Shown here piece by piece: positions 1-53,013 of a DNA stretch of 64,000 nt. The stretch covers positions 96,001-160,000 of the forward strand of contig CAWBQK010000017.1 of assembly GCA_963791045.1 (NCBI GenBank). The letters run 5' to 3'. The position numbers and the translations under genes were made by a program. This DNA comes from Candidatus Latescibacterota bacterium. GTDB lineage: Bacteria > Krumholzibacteriota > Krumholzibacteriia > WVZY01. Each line of letters begins with the position of its first letter. Positions within the stretch are counted from its first letter, which is position 1. The notes under the pieces were generated by a model. The model was not told the DNA's origin, made no database searches, and saw only the letters and a list, made by a program, of their open reading frames with translations.

Positions 1-419
1 GTCGCTCGAGCGGCAGGGCCTGAATCTTGGCCGGCTCTCCGATGAAGTGATATTCGGTGTATTCGAAGCGTACACCGAGGGCAGAATTTCGCGCGAGGGG
101 ATTCTCCATGTCGTCCGGCATCTTCTCGAAGGTCGGAGGGGATGGTCGCCGGAAAGCAATCCATCGCGTATCGGGCAATGCCGAAGCGCTGATTCAAGGC
201 CGCCATTTGACGACCTCGAGATTGACTGCCGATGTCGCAGGATGAGGCGAGACCGATTCGTGATCGAATATCGTCGAGCGGAGCGATCCCCGGTGGTCTC
301 GATAACCGATGTAATAAGAGACACAAATATCTGATGGGGTTTTCATGGAGCAGTTCCTGGGCCGAATCGATGGCAAGATGGTTTCAGGGATGCTCGACGA
401 GATTCTCGGTGCCGCATAG
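1..419 (+). CDS. gatE: Glu-tRNA(Gln) amidotransferase subunit E, C-terminal fragment (truncated at window edge, frameshifted)
   Basis: Frame 2 reads SLERQGLNLGRLSDEVIFGVFEAYTEGRISREGI. After indels it reads KYLMG-FMEQFLGRIDGKMVSGMLDEILGAA* (TAG 417-419). This resembles the archaeal GatE helical/YqeY-like tail, and it lies directly upstream of gatD. Confidence 0.65.
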
Positions 420-486
420 CGGTGTACAGGAAGCCACCGGGAAAGAAGACAAACACAGTGATCGAGGACAAATCGAACTTAACGAA

Positions 487-1875
487 ATGAACAAAACAAC
501 ACACAAAGGATACAGTGGAAGGGGGCTGGCCGTGTTGAAAGAACACGGCGTAACGGTGTGGAGCGACGTGAAGGTACCGGGAAGAGCGGGCGAATTCCGC
601 GGAATCATCCTGCCCAGATCTGAAACAGCGGATGCAAACCACATCGTTTTGAAGCTCAACAACGGCTACAATATCGGTCTTGATGCGGGTCCATCTATCG
701 ATGGAAGAGAAAGGGAGACGGGAGGCGCACTACAAAATTCCTGAGAAAGAATTTCCCTTCGATCCCGGCAAAACCCAACGTGAAACTATTCGGGACGGGC
801 GGTACGATCGCCAGCCGACTCGACTATCGGACGGGCGCGGTGATCCCCGCGTTTTCTCCGGGTGAATTGTATGGATCCGTTCCCGAACTTGCCGACATCT
901 GCAATCTCGATACCGAAAAACTTTATGGCGTATTCAGTGAGAATATGGGACCCGGAGCAGTACATAGCGACGGCCAAGCGAATCGGCGAGGAAATCGAAA
1001 AAGGAACGGCCGGTATCGTGATCGGGCACGGCACCGATACGATGCACCACACGGCTGCAATATTGAGTTTTATGGTCCAGGACTCGCCGGTACCAATCGT
1101 GATGGTTGGGTCGCAGCGGTCGTCCGACCGTCCGTCGTCCGACGCGGCGATCAATTTGATCAACTCGGTAAAAGCGGCGGCCGAAGGCGATATTGCCGAG
1201 GTCATGGTCTGCATGTTTGGCCCGACATCCGATCAATACGGACTTCTTCACCGTGGAACCCGAGTGCGAAAAATGCATTCGAGCTACAGATCCACATTCA
1301 GAACCATCGGCGACATCCCGCTCGCGATGATCAGCCAGAAAAAGGGATTGATTCCTCTGAGGGATGACGTCAAGCGGCGCCGGTCGGACCGGAATGTGAA
1401 GATCAACACCGCGTTCGAGGAAAAAGTGACGATCTTGTACTACTATCCCAATATGCTGCCCGATATCGTTGACGCGTGTGTCGATAATGACTACAAGGGA
1501 ATCGTGATTGCGGGCACCGGACTGGGACATGTTAACAAACCGCTGTATCCGGCGCTCGAGCGGGCCGTCAAAAAAGGCGTACATATATACATGACCGTGC
1601 AGACGCTGTGGGGATACGTTCAGATGTATGTTTACGAAACCGGCCGTGAAATTATGCAACTCGGGGTCGTGCCCGGGTGCAATTTGTTGCCGGAAGTCGC
1701 GTACATGAAGCTCTGTTGGGCGCTCGGCCAGTCGGATGATCGTGATGAGGTTGCCGACATCATGCTGACGCCGGTGAACGGTGAGATCACCGAACGAGAG
1801 CCGTATAACGGGTATCTGATTTATCAGGGCGCGATCCCGGAAGTGCAGGAGTTTCTCAAGACTGTGAAACGATGA
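487..1875 (+). CDS. gatD: Glu-tRNA(Gln) amidotransferase subunit D (archaeal-type GatD), three apparent frameshifts near 700, 770 and 950
   Basis: GatD-specific N-terminal domain (GIILPRSE...HIVLKLNNGYNIG) plus asparaginase-type motifs GTGGTIASRLDYRTGAV, HGTDTMH, GSQRSSDRPSSD, RGTRVRKMHSSYRSTF and GTGLGHV. Reconstructed from ORFs 232, 680, 780 and 862. Confidence 0.9.
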
Positions 1876-1994: not shown

Positions 1995-2621
1995 ATGAAG
2001 ACGCTGATGTTGATTATCTTGTGCCTGGGTATTGCACTGCCCGCGGTTGCCGATGACATGATGGATGAAATTGTTGCCGAACGCGATGGCAGAAAGGCTT
2101 TACTTTTTAATTTCAACGGACTGAATTTGTCTTCGTTCGAAGGTGGAATCGGCACGAAGTGGTGGTTGTCGGGGTCAACGGCAATGGTTGGCAACCTGAT
2201 CCTGGCAAACCGCGGAACGCAGACGGATGCCAATGAGGATCGGTCGGGCCGCGAATCCACGGATTTGACAATTGGCGCCGCACTTGGCGTCGAGAAACAC
2301 CTCGCGCATTTTGGAAGATTCTCGCCTTATTTCGGCGTGAATCTGGGGTACAGGTATTCTTATTATCTGACGGAGAGCACGCCGCCAACAGGCGTGGAAC
2401 GTCGGACGCTCACAAACAAAAGAGAATCCAATGGTGTATCGCTTGGGATCGTGTTCGGTGTGGAATGTTTTGTCACGAAGCACGTCTCCGTTGGCGGACA
2501 ATACAAGCTCGCGGCGGAATACGCCGCCGGGCAAGAGGAATATAACGGGAATGTCCAGGACTTCACCGAACACAGGCTTGGCATAGGATCGTCTTATGTC
2601 AGTCTTGCAATCTATTTCTAG
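1995..2621 (+). CDS. Outer-membrane beta-barrel protein
   Basis: AGAGGAGG RBS, signal peptide, alternating amphipathic strands (FSPYFGVNLGYRY, GVECFVTKHVSVGGQY), C-terminal Phe (VSLAIYF). Confidence 0.75.
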   Translation: MKTLMLIILCLGIALPAVADDMMDEIVAERDGRKALLFNFNGLNLSSFEGGIGTKWWLSGSTAMVGNLILANRGTQTDANEDRSGRESTDLTIGAALGVEKHLAHFGRFSPYFGVNLGYRYSYYLTESTPPTGVERRTLTNKRESNGVSLGIVFGVECFVTKHVSVGGQYKLAAEYAAGQEEYNGNVQDFTEHRLGIGSSYVSLAIYF

Positions 2622-2656: not shown

Positions 2657-3421
2657 GTGATTAATTTGGGTGAGCCGTTTCTTGACCGATTGTTCTTTGA
2701 GATACACAAAGGCCTCGCCCGGGAAGGACCGGGAAGCGATGCGTGTACGGTTCGGGCGCTCGATATGTGCACGGGTCTGCCGGAGACACCGCGGGTTTTG
2801 GACGTTGGATGCGGGCCGGGCGCGCAGACGATCGCCCTTGCGAGACGCATTGGCGGCACTGTAGTTGCCGTGGATAATCACCCCCCGTTTCTCGGCCAGT
2901 TGGGCGCGCGGGCGGCTACGCTCAAACTCCGGGGCAGGATCACTTCCGTCGAAGGCGATATGAACGAGCTTGATTTCACTGACGAAGAGTTTGATCTCAT
3001 CTGGTCGGAGGGCGCGATATACATCATGGGTTTCGAGAACGGACTTCTATCGTGGAGGCGATTCTTGAAGCCAGGGGGCTACATGGCGGTGTCCGAATTG
3101 ACACGGCTTTCTACCGGCGCGCCGGAACAGGTTCGCGCGTTTTGGGAAGGGGAGTATCCGGCGATCCAGGACATAGAGGGCAATCTGTCTTTGGTTCGCA
3201 GCTCGGGATACGAGAGTTCGGGCGATTTTGTACTGCCCGAGTCGGCATGGTTCGATGAGTACTACAACCCCATCGAGCACAAGATCGCCGAATTGAGATT
3301 GATCCTCGAGAATGATGCGAATGCACAGGGCCTGCTCGACATCCATCAAAAAGAAATCGATATGTACCGGGAGGGCTCCCTGTTTTACGGGTATGTGTTC
3401 TATGTGGCGCGGCTTGTGTGA
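2657..3421 (+). CDS. Class I SAM-dependent methyltransferase
   Basis: VLDVGCGPG motif I, FDLIWSEGAIY, LKPGG; GAGGAG RBS before GTG. Confidence 0.9.
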   Translation: MINLGEPFLDRLFFEIHKGLAREGPGSDACTVRALDMCTGLPETPRVLDVGCGPGAQTIALARRIGGTVVAVDNHPPFLGQLGARAATLKLRGRITSVEGDMNELDFTDEEFDLIWSEGAIYIMGFENGLLSWRRFLKPGGYMAVSELTRLSTGAPEQVRAFWEGEYPAIQDIEGNLSLVRSSGYESSGDFVLPESAWFDEYYNPIEHKIAELRLILENDANAQGLLDIHQKEIDMYREGSLFYGYVFYVARLV

Positions 3422-3539: not shown

Positions 3540-4199
3540 ATGCTGAGAATAGTCTTTATTATTAGCGTCATCATGGGGGCGCTTGCGCCGACGGGGTCGA
3601 ATGCCCAGACCCCGACGAACAAGACGGGATGGGATTTCCAAAAGCAGAAACACCGGCTCGAATTCACAGTGCTCGGCGGCAATGTATGGACCTCGTCGAG
3701 GGATGTCCGGTTGGGCGAGGCGCAGGGGGAGCTCGACATAGATAAGAGCGCCTTTATCGGAGTTGCGCTCGACGTCAATCTCGCGGAGAAGTATCAACTC
3801 GAGCTTCTGTACAACCGACAGGAAAGTGAATTCATATTCACGTCGTCGGATCAATCACCCGTCGTGGTTCCGATGTCGGTCGAGTATTTTCATATTGGAG
3901 CGATTGGCGGTATTCAAAAGGGAAACGTCTTGCCGTTCACCCAGTTTACATTGGGGGCCACCAGGTTTGCGGTTGACGGCGGCTCCGATCCTGACTGGAA
4001 ATTCTCGATGATGTTGGGAATGGGGGTCAAATTTTACCTGACGAAGTTTCTCGCCTTGAGACTCCAGGGGCGGCTACCATTTACGTTTGTAGGGAGCGAA
4101 TCACAGATCGGATGCGGCCCGCACGGATGTTTCACAATGCTCGGAGGCGTGGGCATCGCGCAGTACGACATCGCTATTGGTCTTGCGCTGCTCTTATAG
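3540..4199 (+). CDS. Outer-membrane beta-barrel protein
   Basis: Signal peptide; strands QLELLYNRQES, VEYFHIG, PFTQFTLGATRF, GMGVKFYL, LALRLQGR. Confidence 0.75.
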   Translation: MLRIVFIISVIMGALAPTGSNAQTPTNKTGWDFQKQKHRLEFTVLGGNVWTSSRDVRLGEAQGELDIDKSAFIGVALDVNLAEKYQLELLYNRQESEFIFTSSDQSPVVVPMSVEYFHIGAIGGIQKGNVLPFTQFTLGATRFAVDGGSDPDWKFSMMLGMGVKFYLTKFLALRLQGRLPFTFVGSESQIGCGPHGCFTMLGGVGIAQYDIAIGLALLL

Positions 4200-4279
4200 T
4201 CAGCCAGACACATTGCGGCGAGCCTTCGAATCGAAAAAGGCCGAATAAGGAATCCGGCCCGTCGACAAAACTTATATGG

Positions 4280-4314
4280 ACTCCCCGGGCAATTCAGCCG
4301 GGGAGTTTTTATTT
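4280..4314. terminator. Hairpin terminator between convergent genes
   Basis: ACTCCCCGG/CCGGGGAGT stem followed by TTTTATTT. Confidence 0.6.
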
Positions 4315-4732
4315 AATCTCCAACAAGAATGGGTGGTGTGAGGAGGGCCTTGGAACCGTACCCCTGGATGGTGTAACCACCGCCCGCCAGATTTGAAATC
4401 CCCATTTCTCCGGGCACGCCCGGCGCGGCGTTCCAAACCACAACGGCGATGGCGTTTGTGAATGGATTGCGGGGGTAGTTCGCCTGGGGCAGCAGGGCGA
4501 GAAGCTGTGCTTCGTCGGCCGGCTGCGGGTACACACCGAGTCGATCCACCGAAAACAACTCCATTCCCGTCTGGATCAGGTGCATGTTTTCGCGTACGAC
4601 GGCGTCTTTTGCCCGGTCCGCGAACTTAAGATAGTTTGGAATTATTATCGCCGCGAGAATGCCGATGATCATGACGACGATGGCAAGTTCGATCATGGTA
4701 AAACCGGCGTTTGAAATCTTTTTCTTTTCCAT
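4313..4732 (-). CDS. Type IV pilin / pseudopilin (prepilin N-terminal cleavage-methylation protein)
   Basis: Class III signal peptide NAG|FTMIELAIVVMIIGILAAIIIPNY with E5. Confidence 0.9.
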   Translation of the reverse strand: MEKKKISNAGFTMIELAIVVMIIGILAAIIIPNYLKFADRAKDAVVRENMHLIQTGMELFSVDRLGVYPQPADEAQLLALLPQANYPRNPFTNAIAVVVWNAAPGVPGEMGISNLAGGGYTIQGYGSKALLTPPILVGD

Positions 4733-4842
4733 TATTTACCGCCAACAGATTCTGGTGTCTATTAAACGCGGTTATGGGTTCACGTTCCTTCGCTCGGCGA
4801 GGAATGGAACACAAAACTTAGATGTACGGCCGCGCAAGTAAG

Positions 4843-4859
4843 TGAAAGAACCGTGCCAG
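4843..4859 (-). promoter_or_regulatory. Possible sigma54 (-24/-12) promoter for the pilin
   Basis: Minus strand CTGGCACGGTTCTTTCA versus consensus YTGGCACGRNNNTTGCW; the -12 element is TTTC rather than TTGC. Confidence 0.3.
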
Positions 4860-5258
4860 AGCTTTTCGAACGTGACCATAGCGTATCTCGTTAATGTACA
4901 GCATGTTGCGATGTGTGCCGAGGAGTGACGGCTCTTTTGGCTCTTGCAAGGCGCTGAACGATTTGCGACGTGCAATATACACCGTGTCCGCCGGGCGCAG
5001 CCAGAGTGTGTCGGTGAATCCAAAACCGAAGAGTCGCAAAGTTGACGCTGCGGGTAACTTGAGGTGTATCAGCGTGTTAATCGGGTGTCCCGGGTGGGGC
5101 TCCGTCGATAGAAGATTGAATCGGTAAGCCAGAGTTGGAGGAGAACGAGTTGGTTCGGAACTTGCGATAACAGCCCGAGCGCCATGTCGGAATTGGCCGC
5201 AAAAGAATTTGTTACACGTCTCCGGCGACGTCATCAGGCGGGCCGTGAGGAGGAGTTT

Positions 5259-5939
5259 ATGAAATCCCCAAAATTCCCGAAAAAACGGTTCATCGTCGAC
5301 ACAATCCAGTACCGGATAATCGGCGTGAGTCTGCTGTATTTCTTCGCCATAATTATGGTTTTCGCGGGAGTGTTGTTTGTTCCGTTGATGTTTCAATTGA
5401 ACGGCGACTCGCTGTCCTCTCCAGCCGTTCAGCAAGCCGCGAATCAATTTCTCGTTCTTCACACGCGTTTGTGGCCGCCCGTTTTGGTTCTTATGGGGCT
5501 GCTGGTGATCCACAATGTCGTGGTTTCTCATCGTATCGCGGGTCCGCTTTTCAGAATCAGAAATGAACTGAAGAAAATCGGAGATGGCAATCTCTTCGTT
5601 CATATAAGACTACGGAACAACGACTATCTGGACAAAGAGGCGGATTCGATAAACCGCATGGTCGACGCCTTGAGAGGGAAGGTCCAGGGTATCGAGGAGA
5701 ATCATAAAAAAGCAAATTCGGTCCTCGTCGATCTTCAACGCGCGGTGATTCGTGGATCGGCCGATGAAATGAATAACAAGATAGACGAGTTGAATATGAC
5801 GCTCGACGCTTTGAGGGGGAATATCGACGAATTCCAGATCCCTCGTAAAACGAAGCGCCCAACGGAGAACACCGTCGAAAAGGAAATGAGTAAAGAGGAT
5901 CAAGAGCCGGTCGGCGCCGGGACTGCCCCGGTCGCCTAG
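5259..5939 (+). CDS. Membrane protein with two TM helices, HAMP domain and coiled coil
   Basis: GAGGAGG RBS; two hydrophobic segments; SHRIAGPLFRI...IGDGNL...IRLRNND..L HAMP pattern; no obvious output domain. Confidence 0.75.
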   Translation: MKSPKFPKKRFIVDTIQYRIIGVSLLYFFAIIMVFAGVLFVPLMFQLNGDSLSSPAVQQAANQFLVLHTRLWPPVLVLMGLLVIHNVVVSHRIAGPLFRIRNELKKIGDGNLFVHIRLRNNDYLDKEADSINRMVDALRGKVQGIEENHKKANSVLVDLQRAVIRGSADEMNNKIDELNMTLDALRGNIDEFQIPRKTKRPTENTVEKEMSKEDQEPVGAGTAPVA

Positions 5940-5965
5940 CATTCGAATTCAAGCAAAAGAAAACA

Positions 5966-6000
5966 AAAGTCGCCCGTCTCCCCGACGGGCGATTTTTGTT
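5966..6000. terminator. Bidirectional intrinsic terminator
   Basis: AAAAG-TCGCCCGTC/GACGGGCGA-TTTTTGTT between convergent genes. Confidence 0.7.
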
Positions 6001-6080
6001 ATGGACCATTTTCACCAACGGTTTGATGTCGATCACCGTGGAACCAAACGCTGGAAAGCGATGCGGGGTGATGCCTCGGG

Positions 6081-7244
6081 TCAGGAAGAGTGGTCGAGAG
6101 CGGATTCTTGACACTGGGGAAGAAAGACGTGATACGAAGTGCCGCGGCCCAGTCTGTTGTGGATTGTGAGCGCTCCACCACATTCCTCGACAATCTTGTT
6201 GACGACGGCGAGATTCAGTGACGCGTCATCGAGATTTGCTTTGTCGGCGGGGTGTGGTGAGAAAATCCGGGCCATGTTGTCCGGATCGAAACCGGCTCCT
6301 GAGTCCGTTATGCGCAGACGCGCCCACCGGCATCGTCCAATCGGCTCGCCGCGTTTGCTTTTGTGCTCGCCGATTTCGATAGACTCGAGGCAGACTTCAA
6401 TGACGCCGCCCGCATGGATCATTGAATCCCTGGCGTTGATGATGAGGTTCATTACAATCTGGTGAATCCGTATAGGATCGATGGAAACAACAATCGATTG
6501 AGGGGCGAGTTCCTGGCGAGCGATGATGCTCACGGGCAACGAAGCGCGTGCGAGCATTACGGCGTCATTGATTATAGGCTGCAACGAATTACGTTCAAGA
6601 GTGTGGGATCGAACATCACCGACATCGACGATTCTTTGAACGGTGCGTCGCGCCGTGTTGACGTCCTCGAAGGCTCTGTCCAGACAGCGCCTTTCGTTTG
6701 TCCGCTCTTCGGTGAAGTCCATCGCGACGCCGACGTTGCGGCCGATTCGGATCAACGAGTCATTGAGATTGTGTGCAAGCCGCACAGCAATCTTTCCGAC
6801 GGTACGCGTGCGGCACAGATCGACCAGTCTCGATTCCAGGGTTTCCCAGTTGGATTGAAGCCGCTTCTGCGTGGAAACGTCTCGGGCGGAAATCACGAAG
6901 TGGTCGACATGGTACTCGCTGGTCAAATGAGCGGTGACGGACAGCTGAACCGGAACATCGCTTTCATTGGCGGTTCGCAAAACAGTCTCGCGACGCATGC
7001 TGACGTTAGAAGGATCCACGAGATTGCCGTCACGAATAAAAGACCCCACCGACCACTCCGGAAAGAAATCATGGATGTGAGATTTGCTAAGAATGTCATT
7101 CTCGGTGAGGCCTGAAAGTCTGTAAGCCGCGGGATTCAAGAAAAGGAGGCGGCCTTCCTTGTCCGCGATTCCGATAAAATCGCCGGACTCACCAACAAGG
7201 TTGGAGAAGGCGCGGTTCAAAAGAGCATTCGGTTGGTTAGTCAT
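6081..7244 (-). CDS. PAS-domain histidine kinase-like protein with degenerate G2 box
   Basis: PAS (GRLLFLNPAA...ARDVS), H-box LAHNLND, N-box QIVMNLIINARD, G1 DSGAG, GRGTSYHVFLP; G2 position reads DASLNL. Confidence 0.8.
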   Translation of the reverse strand: MTNQPNALLNRAFSNLVGESGDFIGIADKEGRLLFLNPAAYRLSGLTENDILSKSHIHDFFPEWSVGSFIRDGNLVDPSNVSMRRETVLRTANESDVPVQLSVTAHLTSEYHVDHFVISARDVSTQKRLQSNWETLESRLVDLCRTRTVGKIAVRLAHNLNDSLIRIGRNVGVAMDFTEERTNERRCLDRAFEDVNTARRTVQRIVDVGDVRSHTLERNSLQPIINDAVMLARASLPVSIIARQELAPQSIVVSIDPIRIHQIVMNLIINARDSMIHAGGVIEVCLESIEIGEHKSKRGEPIGRCRWARLRITDSGAGFDPDNMARIFSPHPADKANLDDASLNLAVVNKIVEECGGALTIHNRLGRGTSYHVFLPQCQESALDHSS

Positions 7245-21557: not shown

Positions 21558-23313
21558 GTGAACAATAACGACGACACTTCGAAATTGGGGAATGACGGGG
21601 GACTTCCGGAAAACGAAAAAAGCGATTCGTCCCCGGGTCTTGATTTCATTCGCACTCGTATCGTTGAAGACAATACGACGGGTAAGCACAAGGGCCGCGT
21701 ACATACGAGGTTTCCGCCGGAGCCCAATGGGTATTTCCACATCGGGCATGCGAAATCGATTTGTCTGAATTTCGGACTCGCCCAGGAGTTCAACGGACTT
21801 TGCAATCTTCGCATGGATGATACGGATCCGAGCAAAGAGAGCATGGAGTATGTCGAGTCGATAAAGACGGATATTCGGTGGCTCGGGTTCGATTGGGAGG
21901 ATCGGATGTATTTTGCGTCGGATTATTTCGATCAGCTTTACGAATGGGCGATAAAGCTCATCAAGGACGGCAAGGCGTACGTGTGCAGCCTCAGACGACG
22001 AAGAGATTCGTAAGTACAGGGGGACGGTAACCGAGCCGGGTAAGCCAAGTCCCTACCGAGACCGCCCGGTCGAGGAGAATCTGGATCTTTTCAACGAGAT
22101 GAAGAACGGGGAGTTTGAAGACGGCGAGCGAGTGCTCCGGGCCAAGATCGACATGGCGTCGCCGAATATGAAGATGCGCGACCCGCTCATGTACCGGATA
22201 CGGCACATGAGTCATTACCGGACGGGTGACAAATGGTGTATCTATCCGATGTACGATTTTACGCACGGTCAGTCGGATTCGATCGAAAGCATCACCCACT
22301 CGATTTGCACGCTCGAGTTTGAAAACAACCGCGCGCTTTACGACTGGTTCCTCGATGAACTGGACATCTTCCATCCGCAGCAGATCGAGTTTGCCCGGCT
22401 CAACCTGAGCCACACGGTGATGAGCAAGCGACGGCTTCTGGAACTGGTCGAAGAGGGGCGGGTCATCTGGGTGGGACGATCCGCGGATGCCGACGATTTC
22501 GGGGCTGCGCCGACGCGGATACAGCCCGGAGGCGATCCGTGCGTTTTGTGACCGCATCGGTGTGGCCAAAGTGCGAAGCACGGTTGACATCGCTCTTCTC
22601 GAGCATTGTCTTCGCGAGGATCTGAACAGGCGGGCCACGCGGGTTATGGCGGTGCTGCGATCCGCTTCGTGTGGTGATCGAGAACTACCCGGAAGATCAG
22701 GTCGAGGAACTCGATGCGATCAACAACCCGGAGGATCCGAACGCGGGGACGCGGAAGATTCCGTTCTCGCGGGTGATCTACATCGAGCGTGATGATTTTC
22801 AGCGAGGATCCGCCGAAGAAATTTTTCCGGCTGGCGCCCGGGCGCGAGGTGCGGCTCAAGCTACGCGTACTTCATCACCTGCAAGGAGGTGATCAAGGAC
22901 GAACGACGGGCGAAATCGTCGAGCTTCGGTGCACGTACGATCCCGAGACCAAGAGCGGGTCGGCGCCCGACGGGCGCAAGGTGAAGGGGACACTCCACTG
23001 GGTATCCGCCGAGCACGCGATCGATGCCGAGGTGCGGTTGTACGAACCGTTGTTCGACTCGGCGAATCCGTTGGCCGAAGGCGGAGAGGATTACAAGAGA
23101 CTTATCAACCCCAACTCTCTTGAGGTTCTAAGCGGTTGCAAAGTCGAATCGAGTCTGCGTGACGCAGCGCCGGGCGATTACTATCAGTTCTTACGTCAGG
23201 GATACTTCTCGATCGACCCGGTCGATTCGGGCCCGGATGGCCTGGTGTTCAATCGGTCTGTTGGGTTGCGGGATTCGTGGGCCAAAATCGAGAAATCACA
23301 GAAAAAACCATAG
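21558..23313 (+). CDS. glnS: Glutamine--tRNA ligase (about six apparent frameshifts)
   Basis: [84 protein letters not shown], spread across frames. Confidence 0.92.
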
Positions 23314-33505: not shown

Positions 33506-35167
33506 GTGACAAGAACGAAGTTATTGGGAGTCGCCGCGGTTATGGCCGTCGGACTGATCGTTTTATTGGCGTCGGTTGAAAATGCCCCGCCGTTTGATGC
33601 CGAGGCGATTCATTCGGCGGCGAGTCTCATTGGCCTGGAGTTTTCCCCGGCTGAGCGGGATTCGATGGTTGACGATCTTGTTGACAATCTCGAAAGCTAC
33701 ACAGAGTTGAGAAAAGTAAATATCGATAACGCCGTCCCACCCGCGTTTCAATTCAACCCCTTGCCGCGCGGTTGGCGTCCGGCGGTTGTGGAAAGCCGCG
33801 TCGACCTCTCTCCCGCTGGGATAACCAACCCTCCCGACGACATCGGCGAACTCGCGTTTTCTTCCGTTCGAGATTTGGGGGAATTGATCCGTACGAAAAA
33901 GATCAGCTCTGTCGAGTTGACCGAAATGTATCTCGATCGTTTGAAGAAGCACGGTGGCACGTTGGAGTGTGTGGTGACGCTAACCGAAGAACTCGCGCTC
34001 AGGCAGGCGCGCCGAGCCGATTCGGAGATCGCCGCGGGTCGATATCGAGGGCCGCTGCACGGGATTCCCTACGGCGCCAAGGATTTGCTGGCCGCGAAGA
34101 CCTACAAAACCACCTGGGGGGCAATGCCATACAAGGATCAGGTTTTCGACGAGGACGCGACGGTAATCAGAAAGCTTGAGGAGGCGGGCGCAATTCTGGT
34201 GGCCAAACTCACCCTGGGAGCGCTTGCGTGGGGTGATGTGTGGTATGGCGGCATGACCCGAAACCCGTGGAATCTCGAAGAAGGGTCGAGTGGCTCGTCG
34301 GCGGGCTCGGCATCGGCAACGGCCGCGGGGCTCGTCGCCTTCGCGATTGGCACCGAAACGTGGGGGTCTATCGTTTCGCCTTCGACGCGGTGCGGGACAA
34401 CGGGACTCCGGCCGACCTATGGCCGTGTGAGCCGTGCGGGCGCAATGGCGCTCAGCTGGTCGATGGACAAAATTGGCCCTATCTGCCGGAACGTGGAGGA
34501 CTGCGCCATTGTCTTTGATGCGATTCGCGGTGCGGATGGCGTCGATGAATCGGTGATCGAAGCGGGGTTCGAGTATGGTCCAGACGTCGATCTCAAGAGT
34601 CTCAGGATAGGATATATAAAAGAGTATTTTGAAGAGGACTATCCGAACAAAGAAGCGGACGCCGTTACTCTTGATGTTCTTCGCTCGCTCGGCGCCGATC
34701 TGATCCCTATTGAATTACCGGATTACCCCATCGGGTCGCTCGCCTTTATTCTCAGCGCGGAAGCGGCGGCGGCGTTCGATGACCTTACCCGGTCGAATCG
34801 GGATGATCTTCTCGTTCGCCAGATAAAAAACGCGTGGCCAAATGTGTTCCGTTCATCGCGGTTTATTCCGGCGGTCGAATATATTCAGGCCAACCGTGTC
34901 CGTCACATGGTCATCCAGGATATGCGCGAACTCATGGTCGGCATCGATGTATATGTTGCGCCGTCGTTCGGAGGAAGCAATCTTCTTCTTACCAACCTGA
35001 CCGGTCACCCGTGCGTTGTGCTTCCAAACGGTTTCAACGACGAGGGGAGCCCGGTGAGTGTGAGCTTCATCGGAGGGCTATTCGATGAAGGCACGTTGCT
35101 TGGTGTGGCCAAGGCATACCAGGACGCCACCGAATTTAACGGACGGCGCCCCGATGGTTTCGAATAA
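33506..35167 (+). CDS. Amidase signature family enzyme, exported
   Basis: GPLHGIPYGAKDL, GSSGSSAGS, IGTETWGSIVSP; N-terminal hydrophobic signal. Confidence 0.9.
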   Translation: MTRTKLLGVAAVMAVGLIVLLASVENAPPFDAEAIHSAASLIGLEFSPAERDSMVDDLVDNLESYTELRKVNIDNAVPPAFQFNPLPRGWRPAVVESRVDLSPAGITNPPDDIGELAFSSVRDLGELIRTKKISSVELTEMYLDRLKKHGGTLECVVTLTEELALRQARRADSEIAAGRYRGPLHGIPYGAKDLLAAKTYKTTWGAMPYKDQVFDEDATVIRKLEEAGAILVAKLTLGALAWGDVWYGGMTRNPWNLEEGSSGSSAGSASATAAGLVAFAIGTETWGSIVSPSTRCGTTGLRPTYGRVSRAGAMALSWSMDKIGPICRNVEDCAIVFDAIRGADGVDESVIEAGFEYGPDVDLKSLRIGYIKEYFEEDYPNKEADAVTLDVLRSLGADLIPIELPDYPIGSLAFILSAEAAAAFDDLTRSNRDDLLVRQIKNAWPNVFRSSRFIPAVEYIQANRVRHMVIQDMRELMVGIDVYVAPSFGGSNLLLTNLTGHPCVVLPNGFNDEGSPVSVSFIGGLFDEGTLLGVAKAYQDATEFNGRRPDGFE

Positions 35168-52300: not shown

Positions 52301-53013
52301 ATGGAACGATGGCTAAGGGCAGCACGTAGCGGCATGCTTGTCGCTATTGTATTGGTTGTGGTATTCGCCGGTGTCGAGGCGATTGCCGATCCGTGTCTCG
52401 TCGTATATCCGGCGAGTCCGTGCGAATATCATTACGATCCGGGTGAGTACTACACGGTTGGTTTTGGAGATTCTCTTTACGATCCGGCGTTCGATCGGGG
52501 AGGCGAGGTCCTCATCGATTTGCTTACCGGTGAAATCGCTCTCGATGTTTACCAGGCGCCGGTGATCTACGCACTTCGTCATGGATTCCGAAAACCAGGG
52601 TTATTACACGATCGATACCAGCTTTGATCTGGTTGTCGACGGGTTCAACAACGACCCGATAACCTATGAAAACATAATCCTGGTGTTCGACCGCGTGGAA
52701 CCGTCGATGGTGCGTCCCGGGTGTGTGGATCGACGGCAGTCCCGCTATGTATGACGAGTTTTTGGGGTGGTATTACCCGATCGGCGACCTCGTTGTATCA
52801 ACGCCGACACCGCGGGGTGGGAACGTCTCGGATATCGTGACTCAAAATCTCACGTGGGAGAATTGTATCGCCCTCCGGATCTACGCGTTTGCCGATGAGA
52901 ACTACAATCTCAACAGGGACGGCGGCGAGTGCTTCTCCGCGTATTCGCACGACACCACGGTTCCGGTCAAGGAATCGACGTGGGGTGCCGTCAAGGAGTT
53001 GTACTCCGAATAA
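52301..53013 (+). CDS. Secreted hypothetical protein with C-terminal STWGAVKELY motif (frameshifted)
   Basis: GGAGG RBS and signal peptide (AIA|DP). ORFs 52301..52627 and 52723..53013 are joined by a shifted segment (MDSENQGYYTID..FDLVVDGF). Confidence 0.65.

Follow-up and report, generated by a model that had tools for sequence, protein, structure and literature searches.

The 64,000-nucleotide stretch of DNA that we analyzed (the window) begins inside a gatE gene that is followed by gatD. We consider it likely that the two form a real gatE-gatD operon residing in the chromosome of an uncultured bacterium, and that this operon belongs to a large and strongly conserved bacterial clade whose nearest relatives are the Asgard-archaeal GatDE enzymes. 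The window corresponds to G000:C17:96001-160000, where G000 is the genome studied (GCA_963791045.1; a 3.66-Mb bin of 21 contigs, with an estimated completeness of 80.9% and an estimated contamination of 5.8%) and C17 is a contig of 378 kb. Its GC content is 0.538, against ~0.55 genome-wide, and the closest named homologues come from metagenome-assembled genomes (MAGs) labelled Latescibacteria or Latescibacterota. As the reference for gatD we used P0002, an intact and near-identical homologue of 462 aa, and as the reference for gatE the intact GatE of the relative G007, which is a syntenic copy. G010 and G012, two single-contig genomes from the same family as G000, served for comparison of gene order. 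The coordinates of the features are collected in Table 1.

Table 1. Features of the gatE-gatD locus and its surroundings (window coordinates unless a contig is named)
Feature	Position	Strand	Remarks
gatE 3' end	1-419	+	YqeY-like tail domain; at least 3 frame pieces; stop at 417-419
gatE, whole gene	G000:C17:94427-96419	+	begins ~1.6 kb upstream of the window
gatE-gatD spacer	420-486		67 nt
gatD	487-1875	+	~462 codons; stop at 1873-1875; three +1 frame shifts; tblastn of P0002 covers 487-1872
gatD frame shift 1 (frame 1 to 2)	688-700	+	located only to that range
gatD frame shift 2 (frame 2 to 3)	764-768	+	one extra base in cccGGc; DNA compared with P0002
gatD frame shift 3 (frame 3 to 1)	951-955	+	one extra G in cccGGag; DNA compared with P0002
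TGGT motif	795-806	+	conserved in the alignment to 1ZQ1 and 2D6F
HGTDT motif	1027-1041	+	conserved in the alignment to 1ZQ1 and 2D6F
glnS (GlnRS)	21699-23286 (G000:C17:117699-119286)	+	TIGR00440 pieces; at least 4 frame pieces
OMP beta-barrel	1995-2618		neighbour annotation
Methyltransferase	2657-3418		neighbour annotation
Pilin-type N-methylation motif	4316-4732		neighbour annotation

Identity of the two subunits

The original prediction, made from the letters of the window, described a GatD with its diagnostic N-terminal domain and intact TGGT and HGTDT motifs, preceded by the C terminus of a GatE, and both halves of this description were borne out. The gatD of G000 is not an uninterrupted reading frame; it contains three frame shifts and is read in frame 1 to ~690-700, in frame 2 to ~766, in frame 3 to ~954, and again in frame 1 to its end. 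Read through these frames, it scored 403.2 bits on the NCBIfam model TIGR02153 (gatD_arch; cut-off of 324), and the unbroken piece at 862-1872 alone reached 374.2 bits on the same model and 370.6 bits on NF003217 (cut-off of 310). The intact reference P0002 lies over the curated cut-offs of both models, at 501 and 500 bits, respectively, and is composed of a GatD_N domain (Pfam, 49.8 bits) followed by the Asparaginase and Asparaginase_C domains. Its best matches in the PDB were the GatD subunits of 1ZQ1 and 2D6F, at 384 bits, with asparaginases scoring at most 129 bits; with P0002 as the query, the alignments to PDB GatD begin at residues 9-17. In the window itself, 505-741 matched the first positions of the GatD models (2-32 and 5-45), that is, the N-terminal domain. 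In the asparaginase fold, TGGT contains the first catalytic threonine and HGTDT the second threonine together with an aspartate. Both motifs are present in the GatD, as is the conserved RKMH lysine region.

The predicted gene order, gatE and then gatD, was confirmed by translation and by tblastn. Matches to TIGR00134 (gatE_arch) at C17:94469-96130 came to 190.7, 67.8, 36.9, and 33.9 bits, which are values for single pieces of a frame-shifted gene and are to be read as such against the cut-off of 319.55. By tblastn, the G007 GatE aligned to the G000 gene along residues 1-633, from C17:94427 to window position 342, in at least four frame pieces; residues 376-565 matched up to window position 127, and residues 597-633 corresponded to 229-342 in a different frame. 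This G007 protein scored 560 bits on NF003107 (cut-off of 456) and 475 bits on TIGR00134, and it contains a GatB_N cradle with a GAD (AspRS-like) insertion and a GatB_Yqey tail. It matched 1ZQ1 and 2D6F over its full length, at 363 and 311 bits, with GatB structures far lower, and the GatB models scored its cradle domain at 145-166 bits, under their cut-offs.

The archaeal GatDE enzymes of Methanothermobacter thermautotrophicus (2D6F) and Pyrococcus abyssi (1ZQ1) consist of the same two subunits, which align over their full length, and they share the architecture of GatD_N plus asparaginase in one subunit and of GatB_N with a GAD insertion and a YqeY tail in the other. Bacterial GatCAB carries out the same chemistry, and its GatB is homologous to GatE, but the ammonia-releasing subunits are unrelated, being the amidase GatA in one case and the asparaginase-like GatD in the other; GatDE also differs in having no GatC and in the GAD insertion on GatE. 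Elsewhere in the window, 33881-35131 (G000:C17:129881-131131) encodes an amidase-family GatA paralogue that scored 204.6 bits on TIGR00132, against a cut-off of 481, and is not the GatA of GatCAB.

Residency in a bacterial chromosome and origin of the frame shifts

The prediction had also described the neighbouring genes as bacterial, which we could confirm for the OMP beta-barrel and the pilin-type N-methylation motif; a bacterial-type GluRS and tRNAs with encoded CCA are further bacterial marks. ADH-like and EamA-type genes upstream of the operon and several genes downstream of it occur in an order common to G010 and G012. Searches of the window and of the sequence preceding gatE yielded no Rfam family, and scans for promoters and terminators gave matches at chance level. 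On another contig, a predicted tRNA-Sec (UCA) gene at G000:C18:158792-158891 indicates that the organism probably uses selenocysteine.

An upstream gene other than GatE, a protein clustering with AnsA asparaginases, and a contig chimeric with archaeal DNA had been named in advance as findings that would speak against the prediction, and none of them was found. The first of these is answered by the GatE alignments above. AnsA, the type I L-asparaginase, has the same catalytic fold and motifs as the C-terminal part of GatD, and our protein did pass the broad subfamily model TIGR00519 (asnASE_I; 311.6 versus 260.5 bits). On the AnsA equivalog NF006998, however, the piece at 862-1872 reached only 122 bits against a cut-off of 376. 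An AnsA has neither the GatD N-terminal domain nor a GatE partner, whereas here the domain is present and gatE lies directly upstream, and G000 has its true asparaginase at another site (C9:277115-278104), which scored 156 bits with the GatD model and was placed in the outgroup by our trees. We give the identification as AnsA practically no credence. Chimerism or contamination by archaeal DNA might be suspected from the 5.8% contamination estimate of the bin and from the archaeal names of the family models. Against it, the operon lies ~94-98 kb into the 378-kb contig and is flanked by genes syntenic with those of the single-contig relatives, composition is uniform, and the closest homologues are bacterial-labelled proteins of 74-90% identity, versus 42-47% for named archaeal proteins. 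One public contig is, in addition, identical to 1830-1980, across the gatD stop. Chimerism is effectively excluded, and we regard its probability as negligible.

The indels noted in the original prediction are real in the assembly, in which gatD falls into four frame pieces and gatE into at least four, making ~7 or more shifts in 3.4 kb of an operon that is genetically redundant in G000. They are most likely errors of the assembly consensus and not signs of decay, because GlnRS, 20 kb away, is broken in the same way: its TIGR00440 matches are split into pieces of 245.7, 175.9, 127.1, 78.6, and 39.5 bits, which show 75-89% identity to GlnRS from G010 and G012. One could instead take the shifts at face value, with gatE-gatD and glnS as decaying pseudogenes in a lineage reliant on the GatCAB genes of contig C21. 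The large number of frame changes (at least four in GatE and three in GatD), the redundancy of the operon, the equally broken GlnRS, the intact GatA and GatB on C21, and the loss of GatDE in parts of the same order, such as genus g13 (0/17 genomes), would all fit such decay. We nevertheless judge it quite improbable, considering that shifts 2 and 3 of GatD are +1 insertions, each a single extra G in a short G/C run, and that the C-terminal 306 GatD residues show no nonsense or radical substitutions and are 100% identical to an intact ORF of another assembly. A joint loss of GlnRS and GatDE, accompanied by a break in an unrelated gene 50 kb off, also looks more like local assembly noise, and the cover by long ORFs falls across C17 80-140 kb, a dip that spans 60 kb of the contig.

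The unrelated gene, at window 52304-53007 (G000:C17:148304-149007), is the orthologue of a 289-aa ORF in G012 and is split over three reading frames, which suggests that the indels affect this region generally and not gatED alone. The neighbouring ADH-like and EamA-type genes are intact. Three public sequencing runs contained 6-9% of the sampled words of the window, as short fragments of relatives that bridged no shift site. Besides the public contig that spans the gatD stop, a second one corresponds to 1998-2148 with two differences.

Distribution and phylogeny of bacterial GatDE

A 2022 review describes GatDE as found only in archaea (PMC9499178). In our sample of the phylum, GatD exceeded the curated cut-off in 139/201 genomes; the same was true of 16 of 41 close relatives, and a GatD match at E <= 1e-90 was present in 101 of the 125 high-quality genomes of the phylum sample. 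With each GTDB species represented by one genome, a scan gave at least 600 matching stretches. For the best 80 of these loci (74-83% identity), every record bears the title of a bacterial MAG, of which single labels may be wrong; the labels among these 80 include Phycisphaerae, Planctomycetota, Krumholzibacteria, Calditrichia, Gemmatimonadetes, and Zhuqueibacterota, and further Ignavibacteria/Melioribacter, Aminicenantes, Bacteroidota, and Cloacimonetes. Most of the best 80 loci have a gatE of 633-694 aa directly upstream, adjoining or overlapping gatD, and no conserved neighbour beyond gatE occurred in more than 9 of the 80. With these counts, the option of an under-described bacterial GatDE clade, one of two that the prediction had offered, proved right. 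NCBI and JGI already name the bacterial homologues GatD. Our literature searches, which covered sources other than subscription journals, found neither a discussion of bacterial GatDE nor an activity measurement on any such enzyme, and a search for GatDE with Latescibacter likewise found no paper. The locus is an ordinary, poorly polished member of a large bacterial GatDE group that is labelled in databases and overlooked in the literature.

Many GatD matches in the phylum sample sit in reading frames that run for over 1000 codons from stop to stop, and we considered fusions of gatE and gatD as an explanation. In G036, the part ahead of GatD does not match GatE, and the long frames ahead of GatD are open alternative frames, not fusions. 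Protein P0122 (943 aa, from one 12.8-kb Logan contig) combines GatE residues 17-474, without the YqeY tail, with a complete GatD (510-920). Both of our trees place it within the bacterial clade, and it could be either a true fusion of GatE and GatD or a product of faulty assembly. At locus L078, from an Aminicenantes-labelled MAG, a 910-codon ORF (4189-6918) ends at the gatD stop and may be another in-frame gatE-gatD join or an open alternative frame.

The nearest named archaeal GatD proteins, taken as representatives at 50% identity, are 42-47% identical to the bacterial protein and carry the labels Sigynarchaeota, Thermococcus, Nitrososphaerota, and Bathyarchaeia. In a FastTree phylogeny of 157 rows, the bacterial clade had a support of 100 and grouped with a Sigynarchaeota-labelled protein and three unnamed relatives (SH-like support of 96); the named relatives of this Sigynarchaeota protein are all Asgard except for one Bathyarchaeota label. 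A quick IQ-TREE search under LG+C20 PMSF was run on 72 rows, for which ~90 representatives without names and half of the bacterial sequences were dropped, along with L117, a long outgroup row. It again gave the bacterial clade a support of 100, on a stem of 0.46 changes per site, and joined it with all 13 named Asgard sequences (Sigyn-, Loki-, Hod-, Thor-, Hel-, and Odinarchaeota and Promethearchaeota) in a clade with an SH-aLRT of 97. Four unnamed divergent representatives are included in the bacterial clade of both trees. Asgard-archaeal GatD is the nearest branch in both, but it is set apart from the bacterial clade by the long stem, and neither the order inside the joint clade nor the root is fixed.

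An AU test was carried out on 18 named archaeal rows with 16 bacterial and 4 asparaginase outgroup rows. Contrary to our expectation, the tree in which the archaea were constrained to stay together, against the bacteria plus the outgroup, was not rejected (p-AU 0.611), and its log-likelihood even exceeded that of the quick free tree by 8.84 units. Because this constraint is not rejected, a transfer from Asgard archaea cannot be claimed. Within the bacterial clade, the internal branches that follow the stem are very short, and from this shallow divergence, which is discordant with the phylum labels, we argue for a late spread of GatDE among bacteria. Horizontal acquisition, the other option that the prediction had offered, may apply at most to the deep past; it does not describe the locus itself, where the operon lies in a context shared with two single-contig relatives.

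Glutaminyl-tRNA pathways and the probable role of GatDE

Besides the operon, G000 encodes GlnRS on the same contig, AsnRS, and one bacterial-type GluRS (TIGR00464, 517 bits), and intact GatA and GatB genes are found on the 17-kb contig C21 of the same bin. The possibility that C21 is foreign DNA was considered, given that its GatB is 57-61% identical to those of relatives, and found no support: the relatives differ among themselves to a similar degree (57-64%), and the tetranucleotide similarity of the contig is 0.975. GlnRS and gatD are also close together in G010, at ~16 kb (C1:472665 versus 489380; 20 kb in G000). In the sample of the phylum, GatD and GlnRS occurred together in 113 genomes (G000 being counted as GlnRS positive), GatD with GlnRS not found in 27, GlnRS with GatD not found in 24, and neither was found in 37; kin in these counts are non-independent and MAGs are incomplete. 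Among the 16 GatD-positive close relatives, GlnRS was detected in 15, GatB in 10, and AsnRS in all 16 (one match being partial and below the cut-off), and among five carriers from other phyla the corresponding numbers were 4, 2, and 5. In family f8, GatD was present in 7/8 genomes and GlnRS in 0/8. Because GlnRS and AsnRS co-occur with GatD, gene content does not require GatDE.

The identity elements of archaeal GatDE are given in the review as the A1:U72 pair and the D-loop of the tRNA (PMC9499178). The tRNA-Gln(UUG) of G000 has a U1-A72 pair, as do 29/29 such genes obtained from 30 loci of relatives (11 in GatD-positive and 18 in GatD-negative genomes), and the A1-U72 pair is absent from the tRNA-Gln of G000 and these relatives. 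It is here that the original prediction found no support: the archaeal-style pathway that it implied is at odds with the presence of GlnRS, AsnRS, a bacterial-type GluRS, and a U1-A72 tRNA-Gln, in which the bacterial host of this operon differs from the archaeal hosts of GatDE.

The GatD of G000 shares 85-88% of its residues with that of G007 or G012, compared with 57-59% for the GatB of the same genomes, from which it follows that the operon is strongly constrained. Within one family (G010, G012, G007, and G000:C21), which includes two genomes of the same genus, GatB identity is no more than 57-64%, a striking difference in rate from GatD.

The most likely function of the operon is a putative amidation of Glu-tRNA(Gln) alongside GlnRS. 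By analogy with the archaeal enzyme, GatD, the asparaginase-like subunit, would free ammonia from glutamine or asparagine. GatE, which is GatB-like with a GAD insertion and a YqeY-like tail, would bind Glu-tRNA(Gln), activate the side-chain carboxylate by means of ATP, and amidate it to give Gln-tRNA(Gln). In G000, this route would run beside the direct GlnRS route and would act on any Glu-tRNA(Gln) that the bacterial-type GluRS produces, and the enzyme would have to accept the bacterial U1-A72 acceptor end. Our reading of the sequences is that GatDE is probably a working Glu-tRNA(Gln) amidotransferase that is adapted to the acceptor stem of bacterial tRNA-Gln and works side by side with GlnRS.

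A different role is conceivable, in which the bacterial GatDE clade was retuned after its split from the Asgard enzymes and has a shifted job, working either as a route for quality control or for particular conditions, or on a substrate that is not Glu-tRNA(Gln) of the archaeal type. The co-occurrence of GlnRS with GatD (113/140), and of AsnRS as well, would agree with such a shift, as would the U1-A72 pair throughout tRNA-Gln, the long stem (0.46) followed by very short internal branches, a GatD far more conserved than the GatB of the same genomes, and the fact that GatB was not found in 6/16 GatD-positive relatives and 3/5 carriers from other phyla. We regard it as unlikely, since all the catalytic-domain features and the GatE tail domain are kept, no conserved third gene points to another pathway, and the distribution in f8, with GatD but without GlnRS, fits the classical role there. 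Somewhat more room, although still only a modest chance, is left for a bolder version of the amidotransferase reading. In this version, the enzyme would not be a remnant of the archaeal pathway; it would have been retuned to U1-A72 tRNA-Gln and maintained, by selection of unusual strength, as a second way to Gln-tRNA next to GlnRS, one that may be conditional or serve proofreading. It could even represent an ancient bacterial GatDE lineage instead of an Asgard-like import, because placing the outgroup on the bacterial stem costs no likelihood. If the latter were true, one would have to ask again whether GatDE is older than the divergence of archaea and bacteria.

The occurrence of GatDE in bacteria bears on how this enzyme is generally used. 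Reviews treat GatDE as an archaeal signature, and on this premise rest arguments on the co-evolution of GatDE with archaeal tRNA-Gln and on the absence of GlnRS from archaea (PMC9499178). A large bacterial clade that adjoins Asgard GatDE and is accompanied by GlnRS and a bacterial acceptor stem contradicts the archaea-only premise. The present locus adds one more, poorly assembled example, and it is the wider phenomenon that is more deserving of study, with its Asgard affinity, its coexistence with GlnRS, and the question of how it may recognize tRNA. With bacterial GatDE, the way in which GatE reads the first base pair can be tested directly.
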